From IMG/VR virus record IMGVR_UViG_2778261162_000007: a stretch of 47,425 bases of DNA; one strand, written 5' to 3'. This stretch comes from a virus (lineage: Duplodnaviria > Heunggongvirae > Uroviricota > Caudoviricetes). The position numbers and the translations under genes were made by a program. Under the pieces are notes generated by a model. That model was given only the letters and a program-made list of their open reading frames with translations. It made no database searches and had not been told where the DNA came from. This document shows, piece by piece, positions 2,819-20,021 of this stretch. Position 1 is the first letter of the stretch. Every line of letters begins with the position of its first letter.

Positions 2819-5462
2819 TTGCATACTCCTTAGCCCAGCGGGGCAGTGATAACGTCTTAATAGCTGGCCATTCATCGGTATTTAGGCAGTCAGCCAGGGT
2901 CCGCAGATTGCGGTGATATTCCTGCTGGCCTGCCAGTTTTGCTTCTTCGCCCATCATGAAAATCTCAACCGGATAACGTCCGCATTCAACAGTTGTGCTG
3001 GCAACCAGAAAAACGAAAGTTGGCTGCACACCAAACTGTGCTTCATAACCGTCACTGTAGAATGCATCCTGAACGTGATAGCGGTAGTCGTAATAAGCCG
3101 TTTTGAATCGTTGAATATCCGCTGTGGTTTTCACGTCCATGATCCAGTGAAATTCAGGAATAATTTTGTCCGGACGGCACCGACACAAAATTCCTGTTTC
3201 CGGATCTTCCCAGTAAATTGATGATTCAGCGTGTCCGGCGCTTTCAACAAGCCATTGCCCCAGCGGCAAAGCCATAACGCTTTGATACATGAGTTCAATT
3301 TTCCGGCCTTCTTCCGCAGTGATAACCGTTTTTCCTGTGCTTGCGCATTCCATCAGAAACGCTTTCTCTTCTTCTTTTCCGGCGTTTGTACGGCGGTTAA
3401 ATTCAGGTGCTACGATAAAGCGGTTACTGAATTCTTCCGGTTCAAGTACCCGGCAGTGGAAAGCGGTTCCTAAATCGAGCGTTTTTGTCTTTGTAGTGTC
3501 CACGGGGGCATTTTTACGCCACAAATACAGTGCCGGAGTATCAGCAATGTCATCGAGCTGAGACTTACTGACACCGGGACCCGCGTGGTAATTCTCATTC
3601 GAAATTCCGTAATAAATACCTGGCTCTATGTCTTCTACGATTACGGGATCTGCGACTTCGCCAGTTTCATCACTGCAATCGCGATGCGGATCGCTGCCAG
3701 CATTCTCATTGTGCGGATGTTCAGCGCCTTCCATTTCCTCCGGATCTTTTTCCTTAGCTTCAACCTGATTCTCTTCACCGAATGTTTCCTGGTATGTTGC
3801 GTCGCCCATCACCGCACCACAGTCAGGGCAGTTATCCCCGCCAGTCTGACCGCAGGCATTGCAGACTATTTCCGGTTCCTGTTGCACTACTGGCTCAGGT
3901 TGTTTCGCATCCGGGCTGATTTTTTCCGTTTCTGGCTGGTTCTGGTACACAGAATCGCGAGTCTGGATCCCCTTAACCCATTTCGGATCGTTCGGGTCGC
4001 TAATTCCGTCAACAAATTCACCACGTGATGCAGCAAGCAATTTATCGGCATCGACAGGATTTTTTGATGGAATGTTTTTCCGGGCTTCCTGGAGTTCTGC
4101 CCGCAGTTCCTGATATTTCGCATCAACAGAATTTACCTGTGACTGAGCATCCAGCGGCTGCGTGTTCTGATGATGTTCAGTTGCATTCGGTTCCACTGTT
4201 TCAGCCGTTGCCTGTTCATCTGCCATTGCGCCAGATGGTTGTGGTTTTTCTTCATCGTCCTGTTTTCCTTCTTCTGTTACTCGCTGCGGCATCGGGGCCG
4301 AGGAGCGACCGCAGGCAATATCCACGATTTCCGGATCAGGGTTGGCATGATCGGTTTCAGTCAGTACTTTGTTCAGATATTCAGTGACGTGTGCGGGGAT
4401 GACCTCGATCCCAATTGGTGCTTCTTTTACGGACGCAACCACGATGGCGCGGGAATAATCCAGCCCACCAGGCATGGTGATGAATTTGTCGCGGAAAACA
4501 GAAAAGGGTGGTTTATTTTCAGCGATAATTTCCTCGACACGTTTAGCGTGTGCCGGATGAAGGTTATAAATGTCCACGTCCATTGAACGAGCCAGTACGC
4601 CAGTGGCTACGTCGCGCGCCAGTGACGTCAGATCGTGAACGAAACCTTCGCCGCGATCGGTGAGGTTCCCGCCGCCAGCATTAGCGCCGGAAGCCGTGCG
4701 CGTGATGCGTGAAACACGATTTCCTTTTCGCCATTCTTTTGTCAGAAGACCGCGATCAATGTGTTCGGTATCCAGCCAGGCTGAAATGAAATTCTTAAAT
4801 TCATAGGGCTGATGTTTTTTCGTGATAGAGAACACTGCCTTAATTGCATCAGTCAGGCGGAGCAGGGCGGCATTATCCAGAGTTGTCGGTTCTGCCATGC
4901 TGCGTATGGCCAACAGCAGATTCTGGACATAGCTGTTTTCCTGATCCATCTCAAGAGCAGTAATGTGTTTGCGTTGTTCACGGGTGGCATGATGCAGGTA
5001 TTTCCGATCCCCGGCTGCATACGTAAAAATGTGCAGAAGACGCTGTGTGAACCGCAAAGTGGCTACAGAGACTTCGCAATCCTGGCAATCCTCGTGGGCG
5101 TCTGCCTGCGCGTTTTCTTCCTGGCCTCCCGCCAGTTCTTTGGTTTCTTGAGCATTATCCTGGTGGTGAACGTCGTCTGGCGCTGCTCCCGGTTTTAGTT
5201 CCCAGGTCATTGAGTCTTTGCTGAGTTGATAGCGTTCACTCCAGGTAAAATCGATCTCACCTTCAGGGGGAAGGTCATTAACGACAGGAAAATTCGTGGC
5301 AACAGGTTTAAAATAGCTGCTCAGTTTTTTACCTGACTTAACGAGCAGGTAGTCCAGAGTGGCACAGGTCGATTCAAAATCGTCGCTTGCCCACAGGACG
5401 ACGTCAGGTTCACCGGATGATTTTTTCGCTTTCCGTAACAGGAAGAGTGGTTTTGTGCTCAT
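2811..5462 (-). CDS. recE: RecE exonuclease VIII (YqaJ-like C-terminal nuclease)
   Basis: 883-aa ORF directly upstream of recT; long acidic linker and C-terminal exonuclease region typical of RecE. Confidence 0.88.
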
Positions 5463-5563: not shown

Positions 5564-5839
5564 TCAGATTTCACCGCCTAATTTCATTGCAATCAGAGTT
5601 GCCAGAAATCCGGCTTTTTTTTCTGCGGGCAGATTCTTTCCGATGTGAACCAGGCACATTTTTGTGACACCTTCATCAAGTGTTTTTACGTTGCCTGATG
5701 GACCGTCGATATCAACCACAGTGAATGGGGTTTCTTTATTTTCTGTTTTAATCACGTAGCCAATACGCTTTCCTTCCAGATTAACCTCGTGAACAATGTC
5801 ATCGGTAGTTACAACAGTGGCTTCATAATTGGTAATCAT
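5564..5839 (-). CDS. racC: RacC-like protein
   Basis: MITNYEATVVTTDDIVHEVNLEGKRIGYVIK...; AAGGAG RBS upstream of the internal start. Confidence 0.6.
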   Translation of the reverse strand: MITNYEATVVTTDDIVHEVNLEGKRIGYVIKTENKETPFTVVDIDGPSGNVKTLDEGVTKMCLVHIGKNLPAEKKAGFLATLIAMKLGGEI

Positions 5840-12908: not shown

Positions 12909-13682
12909 TTAGAACTGTTCATTGCCATCGAGGTTAGGTAGCATAATTTTTTCAATCAAGGCGAGAGCCTTTTTGTCCCGGTCAGCGAAGTATTTCGGGG
13001 CATATTGCGGCAACCAAATATTGTTAAAATGTTCTTTGAAATCTGCTAAATATTCATTTGGGTACAGCCTTGCAGGGTATACGCGACCATCGGGATATTC
13101 ATGGTCATAGGTAGGGAATGTTTTGGGTTCTACGTTTCTATTATCTCTTAACCATTGTGAAAATACTCTTCCTTGTGAAATGTCAGGAACCATTTTTTCT
13201 GGGAGTGTGTACCCTGCTTGTTCAAGAGGTGCAACCAAGTTGAATGTCAGTTCATTAAGAATAGAAAAGTGCGTGTGAGGAATTCTACTACGATTAACCA
13301 TGTACCGTTTTAAATGTACAGGCATTTCTGCTGTAGTTCTTTCCCCTGACATCCATTCACGAACCCATCTTGAAACCTGGACTGCAAATTTGGGCGATAG
13401 CCACTGCGCTAGATTAATAGCGATGTCAGGATGCACCCATGTCCCTTGGTTTTCAGGTCTTCCACCTTTAAATGATTGAATTAACTCCGATATGGGAATT
13501 CCCATATCGCGTGATAATTCGTCAAAAAACTCTTGAGTAGTTTTGAGTCTAGTGTAATCAGAGAGCAGTTTGCCCGCAGTTCTACACATTGATGTGGCGT
13601 TTATGTAACCATCTTTGGCACGTAAATGTATTATTTCGCCGTCAATTTCACGAGAAATCAAAGATAATTGAAAGGATGTCAT
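12909..13682 (-). CDS. KilA-N domain protein
   Basis: N-terminal region ...IHLRAKDGYINATSMCRTAGKLL...GGRPENQGTWVHPDIAINLAQWLSPKFAVQVSRWV matches the KilA-N pattern. Confidence 0.7.
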   Translation of the reverse strand: MTSFQLSLISREIDGEIIHLRAKDGYINATSMCRTAGKLLSDYTRLKTTQEFFDELSRDMGIPISELIQSFKGGRPENQGTWVHPDIAINLAQWLSPKFAVQVSRWVREWMSGERTTAEMPVHLKRYMVNRSRIPHTHFSILNELTFNLVAPLEQAGYTLPEKMVPDISQGRVFSQWLRDNRNVEPKTFPTYDHEYPDGRVYPARLYPNEYLADFKEHFNNIWLPQYAPKYFADRDKKALALIEKIMLPNLDGNEQF

Positions 13683-14204
13683 TGAAAATTCCTCAAGTTG
13701 GAGAGTTCTGGAACATTAAGGCGAGGTGGCCGTAATGCACCATCTGTAATCTTTTGATACTGACGTAATCGGGCCTGATGTGCAACGCCTTGCAAGTATG
13801 TAACTCATTGAAAACGATCATTTTTATCTATTGACATCAAATGGCAAACTGTCATTGTGCGGCTATGGCAAGTGGCAAATGCTTATAAATCATATGGATA
13901 TAAATAGTACAGAAAGAGTTGTTTTCTCTAGGATATGAGTATACGCCCAATGCTGATTGGTTGAATTTTGTTCTTGTTTTAAAGGGTAAGAGTTTAAAGT
14001 GTTGGCAGTGATGTATTGGATAGTTAGAATTGCTGTGGGTGCTTGAGGCTATCTGCCTCGGGCATGATCACCAAAGGTAGATAGAGAAAAGCCCCAGTTA
14101 ACATTACGCGTCCTGCAAGACGTTTAACATTAATCTGAGGCCATATCTATGCGACACATAGAGATTAGCCTCTTACGGACCGAAAGGTCAAGGAGAAGCA
14201 GGCT

Positions 14205-14360
14205 ATGAAGCAGCAAAAGGCGATGTTAATCGCCCTGATCGTCATCTGTTTAACCGTCATAGTGACGGCACTGGTAACGAGGAAAGACCTCTGTGAGGTA
14301 CGAATCCGAACCGGGCAGACGGAGGTCGCTGTCTTCACAGCTTACGAACCTGAGGAGTAA
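14205..14360 (+). CDS. Hok/Gef-family type I toxin (51 aa)
   Basis: MKQQKAMLIALIVICLTVIVTALVTRKDLCEVRIRTGQTEVAVFTAYEPEE closely resembles Gef/Hok; AGGAGAAG RBS; sits in a 1.1-kb AT-rich non-coding island. Confidence 0.85.
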   Translation: MKQQKAMLIALIVICLTVIVTALVTRKDLCEVRIRTGQTEVAVFTAYEPEE

Positions 14361-14826
14361 GAGACCGGGCGAGGGAGAAATCCCTCGCCACCTCTGATGT
14401 ATTATGCATCCTCAACGCACCCACACTTAACCAGCTTTGGCGGGTTTATTTTATCTGTAAATATTTTTATAAAAATAATGCCCACGCACAGCATAAAACA
14501 AAAAGTATTACAGATAAAAAAGGAGCGTAATGTGCAGATTTGTTGTTTTCCATATTTACTCACCTTAATATGATTAATCCTGATAGGGTTGTTATTTCAG
14601 TGGTTTTCAAATGAGATATTATGGTGATCTGGTAGATTTGCATAACATTAAAATTTAATTTGTTTAACCGCTTTTAATAATAAGCGTTGTTTTTATCCCA
14701 GCAATCTGTTGTTTGGTTTTTATTCCATCAATGTGGGGGCTTTACACTGGAGCCAGTTTATTTATACTTCATTCGTCAGCCTGAACAACTGGCATCTGCT
14801 GCACTGCGCCATCGAGAGATTGAGAA

Positions 14827-15426
14827 ATGGCGCATATACAACTGGTCAAACAAACTTCTTCTGGTTTACTTCTCCCGGCGACGCCGGAGAGTTGCGATTT
14901 TCTGCATCAAATCAAAATAGGTGAGTGGATACACGCAGACTTTAAGCGTGTGCGTAACTACGCATTCCACAAGCGTTTTTTCAAACTCCTGCAACTGGGT
15001 TTCGATTACTGGACTCCGGTCGGTGGGGCGATCACGCCTCGCGAACGAAAACTGGTGTCCGGTTTCGTTGATTACCTGTGTGAATCAGTAGGCCGGGAAC
15101 ATACGCCAGCTCTGAGCGAAGCCGCAGAGCAATATCTGAATACAGTTGCGACACACAGAACCCGTGATACGGCATTGCTAAAGTCGTTTGAGGCTTTCCG
15201 CGAGTGGGTAACCATTCAGGCCGGATTTTACACCGAGCATATTTATCCGGACGGTAGTCGTGGGCGTCGGGCGAAATCCATCGCGTTTGCGAATATGGAC
15301 GAAACCGAGTTTCAGCAGGTTTATAAATCTGTACTGAATGTGCTGTGGAACTGGATTCTGTTCCGTAAATTTTCCTCTCCGGAACAAGTCGAAAATGTGG
15401 CCGCGCAGCTACTGGAGTTTGCGTAA
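14827..15426 (+). CDS. Nin-region conserved protein (possibly DUF1367/YbcN-like)
   Basis: 199-aa ORF located before the ybcO-like gene and Q; family assignment from memory only. Confidence 0.4.
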   Translation: MAHIQLVKQTSSGLLLPATPESCDFLHQIKIGEWIHADFKRVRNYAFHKRFFKLLQLGFDYWTPVGGAITPRERKLVSGFVDYLCESVGREHTPALSEAAEQYLNTVATHRTRDTALLKSFEAFREWVTIQAGFYTEHIYPDGSRGRRAKSIAFANMDETEFQQVYKSVLNVLWNWILFRKFSSPEQVENVAAQLLEFA

Positions 15427-15716
15427 TGGTGGATTTACGTAAAGCGGCGCGGGGCCAGATGTGCCAGGTCAGAATCCCTGGCTACTGCAATCACAATCCC
15501 GAAACTTCTGTGCTGGCGCATTACAGGTTGGCGGGAACGTGCGGAACGGCGATAAAGCCACACGATATGCAGGCAGCGATTGCCTGTAGCTCGTGCCACG
15601 ATTTAATCGACGGGCGGGTAAAAACAAGCGATTACACCAAAGAAGAATTACGCCTGATGCATGCAGAAGGTGTTTTTCGCACGCAAGAAATCTGGAGAAA
15701 GGAAGGTTATTTATGA
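15426..15716 (+). CDS. YbcO-like Cys-rich putative nuclease (DUF1364)
   Basis: MVDLRKAARGQMCQVRIPGYCNHNPETSVLAHYRLAGTCGT...ACSSCHD. Confidence 0.65.
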   Translation: MVDLRKAARGQMCQVRIPGYCNHNPETSVLAHYRLAGTCGTAIKPHDMQAAIACSSCHDLIDGRVKTSDYTKEELRLMHAEGVFRTQEIWRKEGYL

Positions 15717-16255
15717 TTTACCCAACAAATACAGGCAAAAGCGGGGAACACCTTCGTCTCACCACGCTGGAAAGTGTCTGGATTCAGGGAAAACTGCGCA
15801 TGTGGGGGCGCTGGTCGTATATTGGCGGCGGTAAGACGGGGAATATGTTCAACCAGTTGTTGGCCTCTAAAAAGCTGACAAAAACGGCAATTAACGAGGC
15901 GCTCCGGAGGATGAAAAAAGCAGGTCTGAACAAGTCTGAACTTGAGGCTTTTTTGCGGGATATGATTAACGGTAAGCAAAAGAGCTGGCTGGCGCATTGT
16001 ACTGATGCAGAGGCGTTATGTATTGATCGGGTCATAAGTGAGGTGCTGGCAGAGCATCCAGGATTGATTAGCGTCCTTCGTCAACGGTATGAGGGGCGGG
16101 GGATGACCAAACGCAAAATGGCTGAATTGCTAAATGATGCACACCCAGAGTGGTGTTTTAGCACATGCGAAAAGCGAATTGCTAATTGGTTGGCCGTTGC
16201 TGAGTATGCGCTATACATTCCTATGCGAGAATCATTCGCTCAAAAAACGGCTTGA
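15713..16255 (+). CDS. Late-gene antiterminator Q-like protein
   Basis: ATGA overlap with the upstream gene; L..WGRW motif (LRMWGRWS) as in Q-family antiterminators; followed by an intrinsic terminator. Confidence 0.55.
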   Translation: MIYPTNTGKSGEHLRLTTLESVWIQGKLRMWGRWSYIGGGKTGNMFNQLLASKKLTKTAINEALRRMKKAGLNKSELEAFLRDMINGKQKSWLAHCTDAEALCIDRVISEVLAEHPGLISVLRQRYEGRGMTKRKMAELLNDAHPEWCFSTCEKRIANWLAVAEYALYIPMRESFAQKTA

Positions 16256-16338
16256 TTTTTTACGCATAAACCGCTTCAATTTTGCTAAGCTTCGCAAAGC
16301 TGTATCGCGAGGTGAACCAAGCGCATGAACTTTGATAC

Positions 16339-16364
16339 AACCCGCCATTGAGCGGGTTTTTTAT
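16339..16364 (+). terminator. Intrinsic terminator (tR'-like) downstream of Q
   Basis: AACCCGC-cattga-GCGGGTT hairpin followed by a T-run. Confidence 0.55.
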
Positions 16365-16484
16365 GTCCGAAAAACGGCAGAGAACATAAAACGTGCTGGT
16401 GGTTGCGAATACTGGTCTTTCGGCTTGTATTTTTGTAAATCGATATATACTTATCTTGTGACCAGTAATGTCAGGGCAATTGAT

Positions 16485-17228
16485 ATGAATGAAGCCTGTT
16501 CTGTTGTTTTTGTTCATTCCCCGTTTGTTGTGCTCTTTGAAGGAAAAGAGCTCTCTCTTGAAAGTGGTAGTGCACTTCTTGTCAGGGGGGGAGCTGGATC
16601 GTTATTGCCCTTTTCGGAATGTTTTCGGCGAATAAGTCTCAGTGAATCGACAATTAGCCGTTACCTGTTGTGTGGAGACGAAAAACAGGATGTAGTTTTA
16701 GTCCGGCAAATACCACGATATCTTTGCGTGAGTTTTCCGAAGGCAGAATTGATGGGCATCCTGATTGATTATCTTTGTGAGGAAAAGATTCATACGGACA
16801 ATTTAGCGGAAATGCTTTCCTTTTCGTGTCTGGCGTTTTTCTCATCAGAGAAGATGTTTTCGTCGTTTCTGACCGCGTGTATTAGCAATATTAGTGACAG
16901 GCTTAGTGCATTGTTTCGTACGGACATTGCAGCAAACTGGACTCTGAGAGATGTGTCTTCGCGGTTATGTATCAGTGAAAGTTTGTTAAAAAAAAGACTG
17001 AAAGAAGAAGGCACCTGTTTCAGTGAGTTGTTGCTTACAGAGAGAATGAGAATGGCAGCAATGCTGTTGAATCAATCTCGTTGCGCCATCAACAGAATCG
17101 CTGCTCAGTGCGGCTATAATTTTACATCTTATTTTATCAGCGTATTCAGGAGTTATTTTGGTGTTACACCGGCAGGTTACAGGATGGCTGCATTCAATGA
17201 GATGAGTTTAAGTGTTACTCAAGAATAA
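16485..17228 (+). CDS. AraC/XylS-family transcriptional regulator (AppY/PatE-like moron)
   Basis: C-terminal double HTH ...WTLRDVSSRLCISESLLKKRLKEEGTCFSELLLTERMRMAAMLLNQSRCAINRIAAQCGYNFTSYFISVFRSYFGVTPAGY; visibly AT-rich; lies between two terminators. Confidence 0.8.
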   Translation: MNEACSVVFVHSPFVVLFEGKELSLESGSALLVRGGAGSLLPFSECFRRISLSESTISRYLLCGDEKQDVVLVRQIPRYLCVSFPKAELMGILIDYLCEEKIHTDNLAEMLSFSCLAFFSSEKMFSSFLTACISNISDRLSALFRTDIAANWTLRDVSSRLCISESLLKKRLKEEGTCFSELLLTERMRMAAMLLNQSRCAINRIAAQCGYNFTSYFISVFRSYFGVTPAGYRMAAFNEMSLSVTQE

Positions 17229-17362
17229 TTGAATTTTGCACTCATTGAAAACAGGCTCGCTGCGGCGGGCCTTTTTCATATCCGCGCCGCGCCCGGCGCA
17301 CATCACATCAGATAACACCACACAAAAGGCATCTGCGGGTGCCTTTGACAGGGTGTTTTTAC

Positions 17363-17386
17363 GGGCCGCTGGAGGCCCTTTTTTAT
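17363..17386 (+). terminator. Intrinsic terminator upstream of the lysis cassette
   Basis: GGGCC-gctgga-GGCCC hairpin followed by TTTTTTATTT. Confidence 0.5.
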
Positions 17387-17403
17387 TTGTGGGAGGAAAA
17401 AGC

Positions 17404-17796
17404 ATGTCTGAACCCTTATCCGGTTCCGGTACGGCTGTGGCGCTCGGTGGGGCGACGGTATTCGGGCTGTTTACCGGAACGGATTTCGGGATTGTGTTTG
17501 GTGCGTTCGCCGGGGCGTTATTTGTGGCAACGATGCCGCAGGCGCTTTCAGCCTGGCGTGTGGCGGCGCATTTTCTGGTGTCGTTCATTATCGGCGTGCT
17601 GGGCGCAGAGGTTCTGGCATCCTGGCTGGTAAAGCATACAGGGTTTGACGGTGCGCCTGTCGACGCACTGTGTGCAGTGCTGGTGTCAGTGGTGTCGGTG
17701 AAGATTCTCTCGTTCATCCACCAGCAGGATATTGCATCACTTGTGTCCGGCCTGTTCTCCCGTCTGCGGGGTGGAGGAGGCGGCAATGTTAAGTAA
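17404..17796 (+). CDS. Putative holin (multi-TM membrane protein)
   Basis: GGGAGGA RBS; several hydrophobic segments; first gene of the lysis cassette. Confidence 0.5.
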   Translation: MSEPLSGSGTAVALGGATVFGLFTGTDFGIVFGAFAGALFVATMPQALSAWRVAAHFLVSFIIGVLGAEVLASWLVKHTGFDGAPVDALCAVLVSVVSVKILSFIHQQDIASLVSGLFSRLRGGGGGNVK

Positions 17797-18061
17797 CCTT
17801 CCCGGATTGCTGAATGTAGCGTTATGCACGGTTATCGTGCTGACGCTCTTTTTTTATCGTCGCCGTGATTCCAGACATAAACCGCTGATGTCATGGCTGG
17901 CGTGGCTGCTGATGCTGCTGTATGCCTTTGCGCCCCTCAGCTATCTGTGTGGTCGCCCGTTAGCAACGGGCTGGCTGGAAGTGTTTTTTAACCTGCTGTT
18001 CTGCGTGCTGGTGATACGCGCACGCGGGAACGTCACAAAAATCTTTCCATTGTTGAGGTGA
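17786..18061 (+). CDS. Second small membrane protein (holin/antiholin-like)
   Basis: Start overlaps the previous stop; three predicted TM segments. Confidence 0.4.
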   Translation: MLSNLPGLLNVALCTVIVLTLFFYRRRDSRHKPLMSWLAWLLMLLYAFAPLSYLCGRPLATGWLEVFFNLLFCVLVIRARGNVTKIFPLLR

Positions 18062-18441
18062 ATATGTCGGGTAAATTCAGATTCAGCCGTCGCAGTGAAA
18101 AAAATCTGGAGGGCGTTAAACCACAGCTGGTTGCTGTCGTTCGCCGTGCGCTGGAGCTGACGGAGGTTGATTTCGGTATTACGGAAGGGCTGCGCACGAA
18201 AGAACGCCAGAAACAGCTGGTCGCGGAAGGGAAAAGCCAGACCATGAACAGCCGCCACCTGACCGGTGATGCGGTGGATGTTGTTGCCTGGGTTGGCAGC
18301 CAGGTGTCATGGGACTGGCCTCTGTACGAGAAAATCGCGCAGGCATTTAAGAAGGCTGCCGCAGAGCTGGGAACTGCCATCGAATGGGGCGGGGACTGGA
18401 AAACACTGAAAGACGGGCCTCACTTTCAGTTGAAACGCTGA
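18058..18441 (+). CDS. Endolysin, L-alanyl-D-glutamate peptidase (peptidase M15 family)
   Basis: ...NSRHLTGDAVDVVAW...GGDW...GPHFQL, an H..D...H-type metallopeptidase pattern typical of M15 endolysins. Confidence 0.75.
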   Translation: MNMSGKFRFSRRSEKNLEGVKPQLVAVVRRALELTEVDFGITEGLRTKERQKQLVAEGKSQTMNSRHLTGDAVDVVAWVGSQVSWDWPLYEKIAQAFKKAAAELGTAIEWGGDWKTLKDGPHFQLKR

Positions 18442-18455
18442 TAACCAGGTGTGTT

Positions 18456-18674
18456 ATGAGCAGAAAACACTGGACACACAGAATGCCGCGAACGGCGGCG
18501 AAATGGGCACTGGTAGCGATACTGGTGCCTTTTTTCCTGGTGGGATGCGTTAGCCTGGATAAGGCGCGCCAGCTTTTCGATACGGCTTCTCAGGTCTGCG
18601 AAATTGTTGACGGTGTTCGGCAGTGTCTGCAGAACTTATCGCCTGTAAGAGCAGAATATTTTGCTGAAAAATGA
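18456..18674 (+). CDS. Putative spanin-like lipoprotein
   Basis: Signal peptide with LVGC lipobox (WALVAILVPFFLVGCVS); location after the endolysin. Confidence 0.45.
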   Translation: MSRKHWTHRMPRTAAKWALVAILVPFFLVGCVSLDKARQLFDTASQVCEIVDGVRQCLQNLSPVRAEYFAEK

Positions 18675-18809
18675 AGGATGCGCCATCGTCTGGAAAGCAC
18701 GAAATTCTGTGTTTGTGGCTACTCAATAAAATAAATTCTTTCTTTCGCTGCGAATACTCAAATGTTGATCAGCGCCCGGTGCGGCGGCGGGCTTCGATAT
18801 CAGGAGACG

Positions 18810-19109
18810 ATGATGGAAAAAACAAAAAACAAACCGATTGTAATTGGTGCTGATGCTGCTCCGTTTAAGTTTGAGTTGTCTCAACTGGTGGAGATGCGCA
18901 TCAGTGATGAATGGGGGGAGGTTAAAGCCCGCGCGCAGTATGCGGATGGCGAAAACCAGTACTTGATCCACTACAAAGCAGCTGATGGTCGCGCCACGAC
19001 GGAGTGGTTTGGTGAGTCAATGCTGGAAGCAACAGAAGATGATTGTCATCCTGGTTGTCCGGTATTTGCCGGTATGAAATTACCGGAAGGCGCAGTTGTT
19101 ACTGAGTAA
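18810..19109 (+). CDS. Hypothetical protein
   Basis: ORF with CAGGAGA RBS; no recognisable motif. Confidence 0.35.
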   Translation: MMEKTKNKPIVIGADAAPFKFELSQLVEMRISDEWGEVKARAQYADGENQYLIHYKAADGRATTEWFGESMLEATEDDCHPGCPVFAGMKLPEGAVVTE

Positions 19110-19232
19110 CAGGCATTACAGCAGCCCTTCAGTGTGAGGGGCTGCGATAATGTCAAAGCTCGTTATCAGCACCCGCCGCGCACCCAGCGCACTGGCCGAT
19201 AGCGGGCTTTTTTATTCATAAAGCGAGGCTGT

Positions 19233-20021
19233 ATGAGCGAGAAATTGAAGATCGTCTATCGCCCGTTGCAAAAACTGTCTCCGTATGCGCACAACGCCAG
19301 GACACACAGCCCTGAGCAGGTGGCACAACTGGTAGAAAGCATTAAGCAATTCGGCTGGACCAATCCGGTGCTGATTGACGAAAAGGGCGAAATTATTGCT
19401 GGTCACGGTCGCGTGATGGCGGCTGAGGTGCTCAAAATGGATTCTGTTCCGGTCATTGTTCTGTCTGGCCTGACGGATGATCAGAAAAAGGCGTACCGCC
19501 TGGCAGATAATCGCCTGCCGCTCAACGCTGGCTGGGATGAAGAACTGTTACGGGTGGAACTGTCGGAGCTAATCAATGCTGATTTTGATATCTCCCTGAC
19601 AGGATTCAGCCCAACAGAAATTGATGAACTGTTGATGGAAGTTTTGCCAGGTACCGGAAATGAGGAGGAGCAGTATACGACGAAAATTGATACGCCTGTT
19701 TATGAGCCGTCGGGCGATAAACCGGATATCAGTGAACTGTACGACGATACGAAAACTCAGGAGCTGATCAGCCGGATACGTTCGGCGTCCCTTGAGCCTG
19801 ATATCGAAAAATTCCTCCTGTGCGCGGCAGAACGCCACACGGTGTTTAATTTCAGCAGAATTGCGGATTATTACGCTCACGCCCCCGCTGAAATTCAGCG
19901 CCTTTTTGAGGAGTCGGCGCTGGTGATCATTGATTATCAGCAGGCTATTGAAAATGGATTTGTCCGGATGACGCAGCACATGGTGGAGAGCATGCATGGC
20001 GGGGAGGAGGAATATGCGTGA
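19233..20021 (+). CDS. ParB-like nuclease domain protein
   Basis: N-terminal ...PNARTHSPEQVAQLVESIKQFGWTNPVLIDEKGEIIAGHGRVMAA..., a ParB N-terminal (ParB/Srx) pattern. Confidence 0.7.
   Translation: MSEKLKIVYRPLQKLSPYAHNARTHSPEQVAQLVESIKQFGWTNPVLIDEKGEIIAGHGRVMAAEVLKMDSVPVIVLSGLTDDQKKAYRLADNRLPLNAGWDEELLRVELSELINADFDISLTGFSPTEIDELLMEVLPGTGNEEEQYTTKIDTPVYEPSGDKPDISELYDDTKTQELISRIRSASLEPDIEKFLLCAAERHTVFNFSRIADYYAHAPAEIQRLFEESALVIIDYQQAIENGFVRMTQHMVESMHGGEEEYA

Follow-up and report, generated by a model that had tools for sequence, protein, structure and literature searches.

Prophage-borne transcription factors of the AraC family, namely AppY, PatE and PsrA/PsrB, are the clearest cases in which phages rewire core stress and virulence regulons of Escherichia coli. 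According to passages of PMC10877973, PatE and PsrB activate gadE and hdeA, and PsrA and PsrB repress type III secretion via GadE; how the Psr regulators affect GadE, resistance to acid and type III secretion is described in the same paper and in PMC8565820. AppY, a moron (cargo gene) with a pleiotropic host regulon, targets gadE directly (PMC10057817). Here we analyze a gene of this kind in IMG/VR record IMGVR_UViG_2778261162_000007, a 47,425-nucleotide stretch of DNA from a virus of the class Caudoviricetes (hereafter the window), where an AraC/XylS-family regulator of the GadW/YdeO/PatE/Psr type (16485..17228, plus strand; 247 aa, ATG start) stands between a Q-like late-gene antiterminator and the lysis genes.

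The reading that we favor, and consider somewhat probable as a whole, is that the gene forms a cargo cassette of a lambdoid Rac-site E. coli prophage, that it would be transcribed from a weak promoter of its own in the lysogen and by Q read-through on induction, and that its product would act on host targets of the GAD/acid-fitness type. The gene represents a fourth prophage-borne lineage, so far uncharacterised, in the group formed with AppY, PatE and PsrA/PsrB. A search of the literature by the RefSeq protein accession of the regulator found no mention of it.

Family membership and closest relatives

The original prediction had called the open reading frame (ORF) at 16485..17228 an AraC/XylS-type regulator, an assignment that both profile searches and structural superposition bear out. 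Among Pfam profiles, HTH_18 matched residues 158-233 with an E-value of 1.9e-13 (50.9 bits, cutoff 33.6) and HTH_AraC matched with an E-value of 2.9e-13 (50 bits, cutoff 26.6); PHROG 1450 matched at 1e-56. The structure of the GadX DNA-binding domain (3mkl) was matched by sequence at 1.7e-22, and the modelled DNA-binding domain superposed on it with a TM-score of 0.90 and a root-mean-square deviation (rmsd) of 1.0 A at 42-44% identity. The protein is an AraC/XylS family member and carries two helix-turn-helix motifs in a C-terminal domain of ~100 aa. The AlphaFold2 model was built from a 9-sequence alignment and has a mean predicted local distance difference test (pLDDT) of 67, with values of 74-96 over residues 141-230 and below 50 for residues 60-134.

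The best NCBIfam profile was YdeO (NF007407), which covered residues 2-230 of 247 with an E-value of 2.9e-43 and reached 148.3 bits against an equivalog cutoff of 348. GadX (NF007432) reached 98.5 bits against a cutoff of 500, and the profiles for GadX, HilD and others matched the C-terminal half only. Because these scores fall below the equivalog cutoffs, the regulator is not an orthologue of YdeO or GadX. With reference proteins drawn from the K-12 and O157 Sakai records, full-length identity to PatE, PsrA, YdeO and GadW ranged from 35 to 41%: BLASTP alignments of residues 1-232 gave 39% for PatE (ECs_0287), 37% for YdeO and 36% for GadW (35-37% for the latter two), and PsrA (ECs_1087) was 36-38% identical, the 38% figure coming from an alignment to its truncated annotated ORF. 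For GadX and EnvY the identity was 40%, confined to the DNA-binding domain. Identity to the full-length relatives is distributed unevenly, with 41-54% in the DNA-binding domain (41-47% for YdeO and GadW) and 21-33% in the N-terminal domain. The first recognition helix (SESLLKK.LK) is nearly unchanged between the regulator and these relatives, and the N-terminus M-x-x-x-C-S-V ("M..CSV") is common to the regulator, PatE, PsrA, YdeO and GadW. Colinear homology over the full length, the N-terminal domain included, places the protein on sequence grounds in the GadW/YdeO/PatE/Psr/AppY subgroup.

A neighbor-joining tree, the phylogenetic check that had been proposed for the suggested kinship with AppY and PatE, agrees with that kinship. 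The regulator forms a clade of its own with database proteins 76-99% identical to it, and this clade is nested among Psr, PatE, YdeO, GadW and AppY, apart from GadX, EnvY and YbcM.

Each characterised relative resembles the window regulator in some respects and departs from it in others. PsrA and PsrB of O157:H7 (Z1789/ECs_1087 in CP-933N/Sp4, and Z2104) belong to the same AraC subgroup, have ~237-247 aa and share the "M..CSV" start, but they are ~90% identical to each other and PsrA is related to the window regulator only at the level given above, so the latter is not their orthologue. PatE (Z0321/ECs_0287 in CP-933H/Sp1) is likewise prophage-borne and has the highest BLAST score among the characterised relatives, but it lies past tail-fibre genes beside an IS3 remnant and not after Q, as do its copies in ev099 and mEp332, which are also past tail-fibre genes; moreover its activation of gadE and hdeA was established experimentally, as stated in passages of PMC10877973. 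Of the chromosomal acid-fitness regulators YdeO and GadW, the former gives the best NCBIfam profile match and both show the full-length similarity, but they are part of the core chromosome, whereas the window gene is phage-borne and lacks the EvgAS/safA context. AppY, encoded by DLP12 in K-12, is a prophage AraC/XylS protein of the same broad clade, but is only 28-30% identical and sits past tail-fibre remnants, not after Q. Finally, sequence matches to Rns, CsvR and ToxT, for which full-length structures have been solved, reach into the N-terminal domain (67/88-231, E ~1e-17), and Foldseek aligned ~250 columns at E 1e-12; identity to these proteins is, however, ~20%, and with an N-terminal model at pLDDT 38-48 and an rmsd of ~17 A the domain arrangement and the fatty-acid pocket are not readable.

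Position of the gene in the late region

E. coli chromosomes, that of strain A17 among them, match the region at 100% identity; in A17 the counterpart is a lambdoid prophage integrated beside ttcA (the Rac site) with early genes of Rac type (intR, xisR, ralR, recT/recE, kilR, racR and ydaS/T) and a complete set of late genes. Upstream of the regulator lies the Q-like late-gene antiterminator (15713..16255, plus strand), which matched the Pfam family DUF1133 at 1.2e-107 and PHROG 753, "anti-termination protein Q-like", over its full length at 9.8e-80; the Pfam family Phage_antitermQ scored 27.1 bits, barely over its cutoff of 26. It is preceded by nin-type genes encoding DUF1367 and YbcO proteins. 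Downstream lies the lysis cassette (17404..18441, plus strand), comprising a holin (17404..17796), a holin with three transmembrane segments (17786..18061) and an M15 endolysin (18064..18441), which matched the Pfam families Phage_holin_8, Phage_holin_3_7 and Peptidase_M15_4 and PHROGs 198, 217 and 465 of the category "lysis". The regulator gene is thus situated between a Q antiterminator and the lysis genes, as had been predicted; all are co-oriented, and the gene lies 3' of the first terminator and 5' of the lysis genes.

This placement past the candidate late promoter and the first terminator, before the lysis genes and on the same strand, is that of the Shiga toxin (stx) genes, and the comparison with the Stx slot drawn in the original prediction is well founded. 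Phage phiSTEC1575-Stx2k carries a PsrA orthologue (89%) between Q and the tRNAs plus stx2k, and in Sakai Sp4 psrA (ECs_1087) lies 3' of the antiterminator ECs_1084, from which two other cargo genes separate it, with ileZ-argN-argO next in line. Because PsrA and the orthologue in the Stx2k phage occupy the same slot, the Q-to-lysis architecture has a direct precedent: E. coli O157 prophages offer an earlier case of an AraC regulator between Q and the lysis genes, a point on which the earlier view of the arrangement needs correction, and it is the gene lineage itself that is uncharacterised. A PatE-like gene also lies directly 5' of the holin in phage Lambda_2G7a. PsrA and PsrB therefore share with the window regulator a lambdoid prophage slot 3' of a co-oriented late antiterminator and before the tRNA/stx/lysis region, but in Sp4 two genes intervene between Q and psrA and three tRNAs follow, whereas the window gene is the sole cargo and abuts both a tR'-like hairpin and the holins. 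The stx operon and the AB5-ADP-ribosyltransferase cargo are similarly placed between Q-pR'-tR' and the lysis cassette; there the slot holds a toxin and in the window a transcription factor.

Presence, absence and exchange of the cassette

At a coverage of at least 80%, megablast found the 1145-bp region in 65 of 5426 complete E. coli genomes (~1%), and no orthologue was present among GTDB species representatives. The carriers listed were mostly non-O157; cattle, wildlife and the environment were the main sources of these isolates, and some came from humans. The Q module is far commoner than the AraC gene, and in genomes without the gene similarity stops at 16360, the end of the upstream hairpin. 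In strain B19695, for example, the DUF1133 Q protein (WP_000640136.1) is identical, but tRNA-Thr/Gly and another lysis cassette come after it, and strain ESC818 (L017 2431-3649) carries a scabin-related ADP-ribosyltransferase and a subtilase-family AB5 B subunit between a homologous DUF1133 Q and the same holin/holin/M15 cassette. The slot that the regulator occupies in the window carries Shiga toxin and AB5-type toxins elsewhere. Taken together with a nucleotide composition unlike that of its neighbors (below), this presence or absence between phage genes that are homologous by sequence comparison identifies the gene as a moron, in agreement with the original prediction.

The surroundings of the gene were surveyed at 51 loci from IMG/VR and other sources. 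A co-oriented Q was found upstream at 48 of them and fell into three unrelated families (DUF1133 at 25 loci, Q21/QuuD type at 18 and lambda type, PF03589, at 5), while a holin was found downstream at 44. The same AraC gene (99-100% identical) occurs alongside all three Q families and either of two holin types, and the additional cargo that accompanies it varies (TerB, IraM, tRNAs); some genomes carry TerB, DUF3927 or IraM after it.

That the gene lies immediately beside the lysis cassette and late promoter might suggest a regulator of the phage itself, acting on phage promoters that govern the timing of lysis, the late genes or superinfection exclusion, and not on host genes. We judge this the least probable of the explanations considered, since a gene combined with three Q families, two holin types and variable cargo is too exchangeable to belong to the circuitry of one phage, since the same Q and lysis modules function without it in other prophages, and since the characterised relatives, as presented in passages of PMC10877973 and PMC10057817, all target host regulons.

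Two further kinds of cargo were observed in this slot. An iraM-like gene for an anti-adaptor (RpoS stabiliser) lies between Q and the lysis genes (L020 5555-5890; L006 6012-6335) in prophages that carry the AraC gene or a psr orthologue. In the 87% lineage (L060 1335-2723, minus strand), genes for a 313-aa protein and a 147-aa membrane protein separate a QuuD-type Q from the AraC gene; this minus-strand duo may be a defence pair.

Composition and selection

The regulator gene has a GC content of 0.419 and a GC content at third codon positions (GC3) of 0.40, compared with 0.48-0.58 and 0.51-0.63 for its neighbors. The earlier description of the gene as visibly AT-rich therefore stands in relation to its neighbors and needs moderating in relation to the window, where it falls at the 15th percentile among 744-nt segments and is not extreme. 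Among five lineages 76-96% identical, the ratio of nonsynonymous to synonymous substitution rates (dN/dS) was 0.22-0.40, which shows that the regulator is under purifying selection, and reading frames are intact across lineages down to 76% identity.

Broken copies also occur: the gene is frameshifted in strain C41 (L002), and a cluster of 158-aa proteins (P0006) has 61 members, compared with 241 in the intact cluster. These copies, together with the relative AT-richness that makes the gene a plausible H-NS target, its restriction to the small fraction of genomes given above and its absence from GTDB species representatives, are what would be expected of a decaying passenger, that is, a functionless hitch-hiking remnant that is silenced (for example by H-NS) and becoming a pseudogene. 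This explanation appears to us highly improbable given the constraint on the protein and its intact frames, the conservation of the 5' region and ribosome-binding site, and the repeated recruitment of the gene into different phage backbones.

Candidate transcription signals upstream of the gene

A candidate late promoter resembling pR' (TTGATT-17 nt-TTCAAT; 16252..16280, plus strand) lies at the end of the Q-like gene. The hexamer pair is weak, and a consensus promoter scan does not find it; a diverged Q allele (L020/L021) keeps the pair and its spacing (TTGCAA-17-TTCAAT) with a different spacer sequence. It is followed by hairpin 1, a tR'-like stem and T-run (16339..16364, plus strand; stem 16339-16358, dG -11.2, z -3.0) that forms the left junction of the AraC cassette. 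The stretch 16256-16360 accompanies the DUF1133 Q regardless of the cargo downstream, and hairpin 1, which had been described simply as a terminator flanking the regulator, is also part of the Q/late-promoter module. Every lineage has it upstream of the gene, its stem maintained by compensatory changes (CCCGCC/GGCGGG in the window, CCTGTC/GACAGG in L016 and TCCGC/GCGG in L019). In the lambda-Q contexts L012 and L014, compared with the lambda record NC_001416, a lambda-type pR' (-35, -10 TAAATT or TAAGAT, N6, AACGATGGG) lies ~45 nt before hairpin 1, which makes hairpin 1 the first terminator after pR'.

In the alignment of lineages, conservation begins at hairpin 1 and extends to the ATG. Within this interval lies a candidate promoter for the gene itself (TTGTAT-15 nt-TATACT; 16425..16451, plus strand), the top match to the promoter position weight matrix (PWM) in 16256-16500 with a score of 9.1. 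It is embedded in an almost invariant block, and the form TTG[CT]AT-N15-TATACT recurs at 51 of 51 loci, the 76-87% lineages included. Divergence over positions -90..-1 was 0.14-0.18, compared with a synonymous divergence (pS) of 0.21-0.41; the upstream region was less diverged than synonymous sites in distant pairs only, and in the closest pair its divergence was not below pS. A Shine-Dalgarno-like AGGG (16473..16476, plus strand) lies 8 nt 5' of the ATG, and the surrounding GTCAGG is mostly retained across lineages, with one change, in L016. Elsewhere, the interval from the upstream hairpin of psrA to its ATG contains a promoter-like site (ATGATA-16-TATAAT), and PatE and the Lambda_2G7a homologue have a TATACT -10-like element at a similar distance from the ATG.

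An unlikely competitor to the favored reading is that the gene belongs to the late operon alone, has no working promoter of its own, is made only under Q in lysing cells and serves lytic growth, for example burst size. Consistent with this, the gene has the same orientation as Q and in all cases lies downstream of it, a terminator lies directly 5' in every lineage, the stricter consensus scan calls no promoter in 15600-18200 and the spacer of the candidate promoter, at 15 nt, is suboptimal. On the other hand, all lineages have TTGYAT-15-TATACT within the near-invariant block at -65..-25, PatE, the Lambda_2G7a homologue and psrA carry promoter-like elements at similar sites, and terminators between the gene and the holins fit best if the gene is transcribed while the lysis genes are off. 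Furthermore, psrA and patE deletion mutants of enterohemorrhagic E. coli show phenotypes, and the passages of PMC10877973 that describe them report no prophage induction.

A Chi site (GCTGGTGG; 16395..16402, plus strand) lies between hairpin 1 and the candidate promoter and is present at 49 of the 51 loci. The same octamer occupies the equivalent position upstream of psrA in Sakai Sp4 (L011 13568-13575) and upstream of the psr gene of the Stx2k phage (L006, before gp36), and the proteins encoded downstream of these shared Chi sites are only ~37% identical. psrA thus shares with the window gene the whole order of hairpin plus T-run, Chi, promoter-like site and ATG. Chi at the edge of the cassette may be a recombination hot spot or may be a coincidence. 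A more ambitious proposal, about which we are doubtful, is that hairpin, Chi, weak promoter and AraC gene constitute a self-contained, slot-specific cassette that is exchanged among the unrelated late regions of the three Q families by Chi-stimulated homologous recombination at terminator punctuation, and that its regulator, with the diverged N-terminal domain (21-33% identity to known relatives), would have a different signal or regulon than the GAD regulators.

Chi is frequent throughout the 47 kb, with eight copies on the plus strand (12835, 16395, 22058, 22937, 24232, 24715, 27808 and 28471) and one on the minus strand (17718). The expectation from length alone is ~0.7 per strand, so that plus-strand enrichment is strong and strand-biased.

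Terminator-like hairpins between the gene and the lysis cassette

A consensus scan of 15600-18200 returned 9 terminator-like sites, compared with 3.0 +/- 1.8 in shuffled sequences. Both hairpins that the original prediction had named as flanking the gene exist, but its count of two missed the strongest, and there are three in all. This strongest one, hairpin 2a, is a putative gene-proximal terminator with five T residues (17253..17277, plus strand; stem 17253-17272, dG -20, z -4.9) that starts 25 nt past the stop codon of the regulator. Hairpin 2b, with six T residues (17363..17384, plus strand; stem 17363-17378, dG -11.6, z -2.1), lies just 5' of the holin ribosome-binding site and is part of the holin module, as similarity to genomes without the AraC gene begins between 17254 and 17404. 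In Sakai Sp4, near-copies of hairpins 1 and 2a (L011 13198-13213 and 14683-14700) follow the CAAX-protease gene and argO. In strain C41 (L002 ~5000-5022 and 5803-5828), window positions 17254-17279 align to each of the two BLAST segments on either side of a ~780-bp tRNA-Arg insert; an exact-match search of L002 for the 26-mer 17254-17279 found none.

Terminator hairpins thus recur as common "punctuation" between cargo units. In addition, 2a and 2b have between them a perfect hairpin made of G and C alone (GCGCCG-CGCC-CGGCGC; 17284-17299) that lacks a T-run, which brings the stem-loops that follow one another in the 175-nt spacer 5' of the holin to at least three.

A working model and its implications

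Under the reading that we favor, transcription from the late promoter would halt at hairpin 1 in the lysogen, and the regulator would be made from its own weak promoter (16425-16451) at a level that is low or dependent on stress or stationary phase. Hairpins 2a and 2b would end this transcript before the holins, so that no lysis would follow. On induction, Q-modified RNA polymerase would pass all three hairpins and the gene would be co-transcribed with the lysis genes, as is stx in Stx phages. The protein is predicted from its sequence to use its two helix-turn-helix motifs to bind AT-rich promoters of the host and, by analogy with its relatives, would activate the GAD/acid-fitness regulon (gadE and hdeA) or a set of genes that overlaps with it, which would alter the stress resistance or colonization of the lysogen.

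Several observations weigh against this reading. Identity to each characterised relative is just 35-41%, is 21-33% in the N-terminal domain and yields scores far under the equivalog cutoffs; given this low identity, the N-terminal divergence and the sub-cutoff NCBIfam scores, a regulon can be transferred from the relatives only tentatively. The AlphaFold2 model is confident solely for the DNA-binding domain. To the poor spacer and empty strict scan discussed above must be added that PWM matches of the same score as the candidate promoter occur by chance at ~0.8 per kb in the window. No significant hairpin was found at the position of 2a in the 76-87% orthologues L012, L014 and L016. The frameshifted and truncated copies, moreover, mean that the gene is dispensable in some lineages.

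If the regulator activates acid resistance, or represses or activates colonization factors, then strains that are otherwise unremarkable would, on lysogeny by Rac-site and related phages, differ in their gastric survival and in their range of hosts. No new principle is involved, but the locus offers a clean example of how the post-Q cargo slot is organized and exchanged, with one cassette, three Q families and a terminator plus Chi punctuation held in common with psrA.

Other features of the region

An antisense ORF (16260..16517, minus strand; 85 aa) covers the start of the AraC gene and the upstream block, and its frame is uninterrupted over 60 aa or more in each of the five lineages. Of the substitutions in -90..-1, 8 fell on its first codon position, 16 on the second and 25 on the third, in comparisons that are not independent. 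A small antisense protein was considered as the main cause of the upstream conservation and rejected, as the ORF has no Pfam or PHROG match, poor Shine-Dalgarno spacing and an unconserved C-terminus. RefSeq has extra "hypothetical proteins" annotated at this region in two genomes.

For the Q-like protein, a sequence search of the PDB reached Q21 (6P18) at only E=0.27, and a single-sequence AlphaFold2 model with a pLDDT of 43.7 was unusable for a fold comparison with that structure. An Rfam scan of 16256-17403 found no RNA family, a match to rsmX at 17196-17275 being far under threshold. Over 13500-19500 the sole significant Rfam match was sok at 14037-14207 (101 bits, E 1e-22), which, with a HokD-like ORF at 14205-14360, delimits a hok/sok-type toxin-antitoxin locus (14037-14360) between a KilA-N gene and the nin region.

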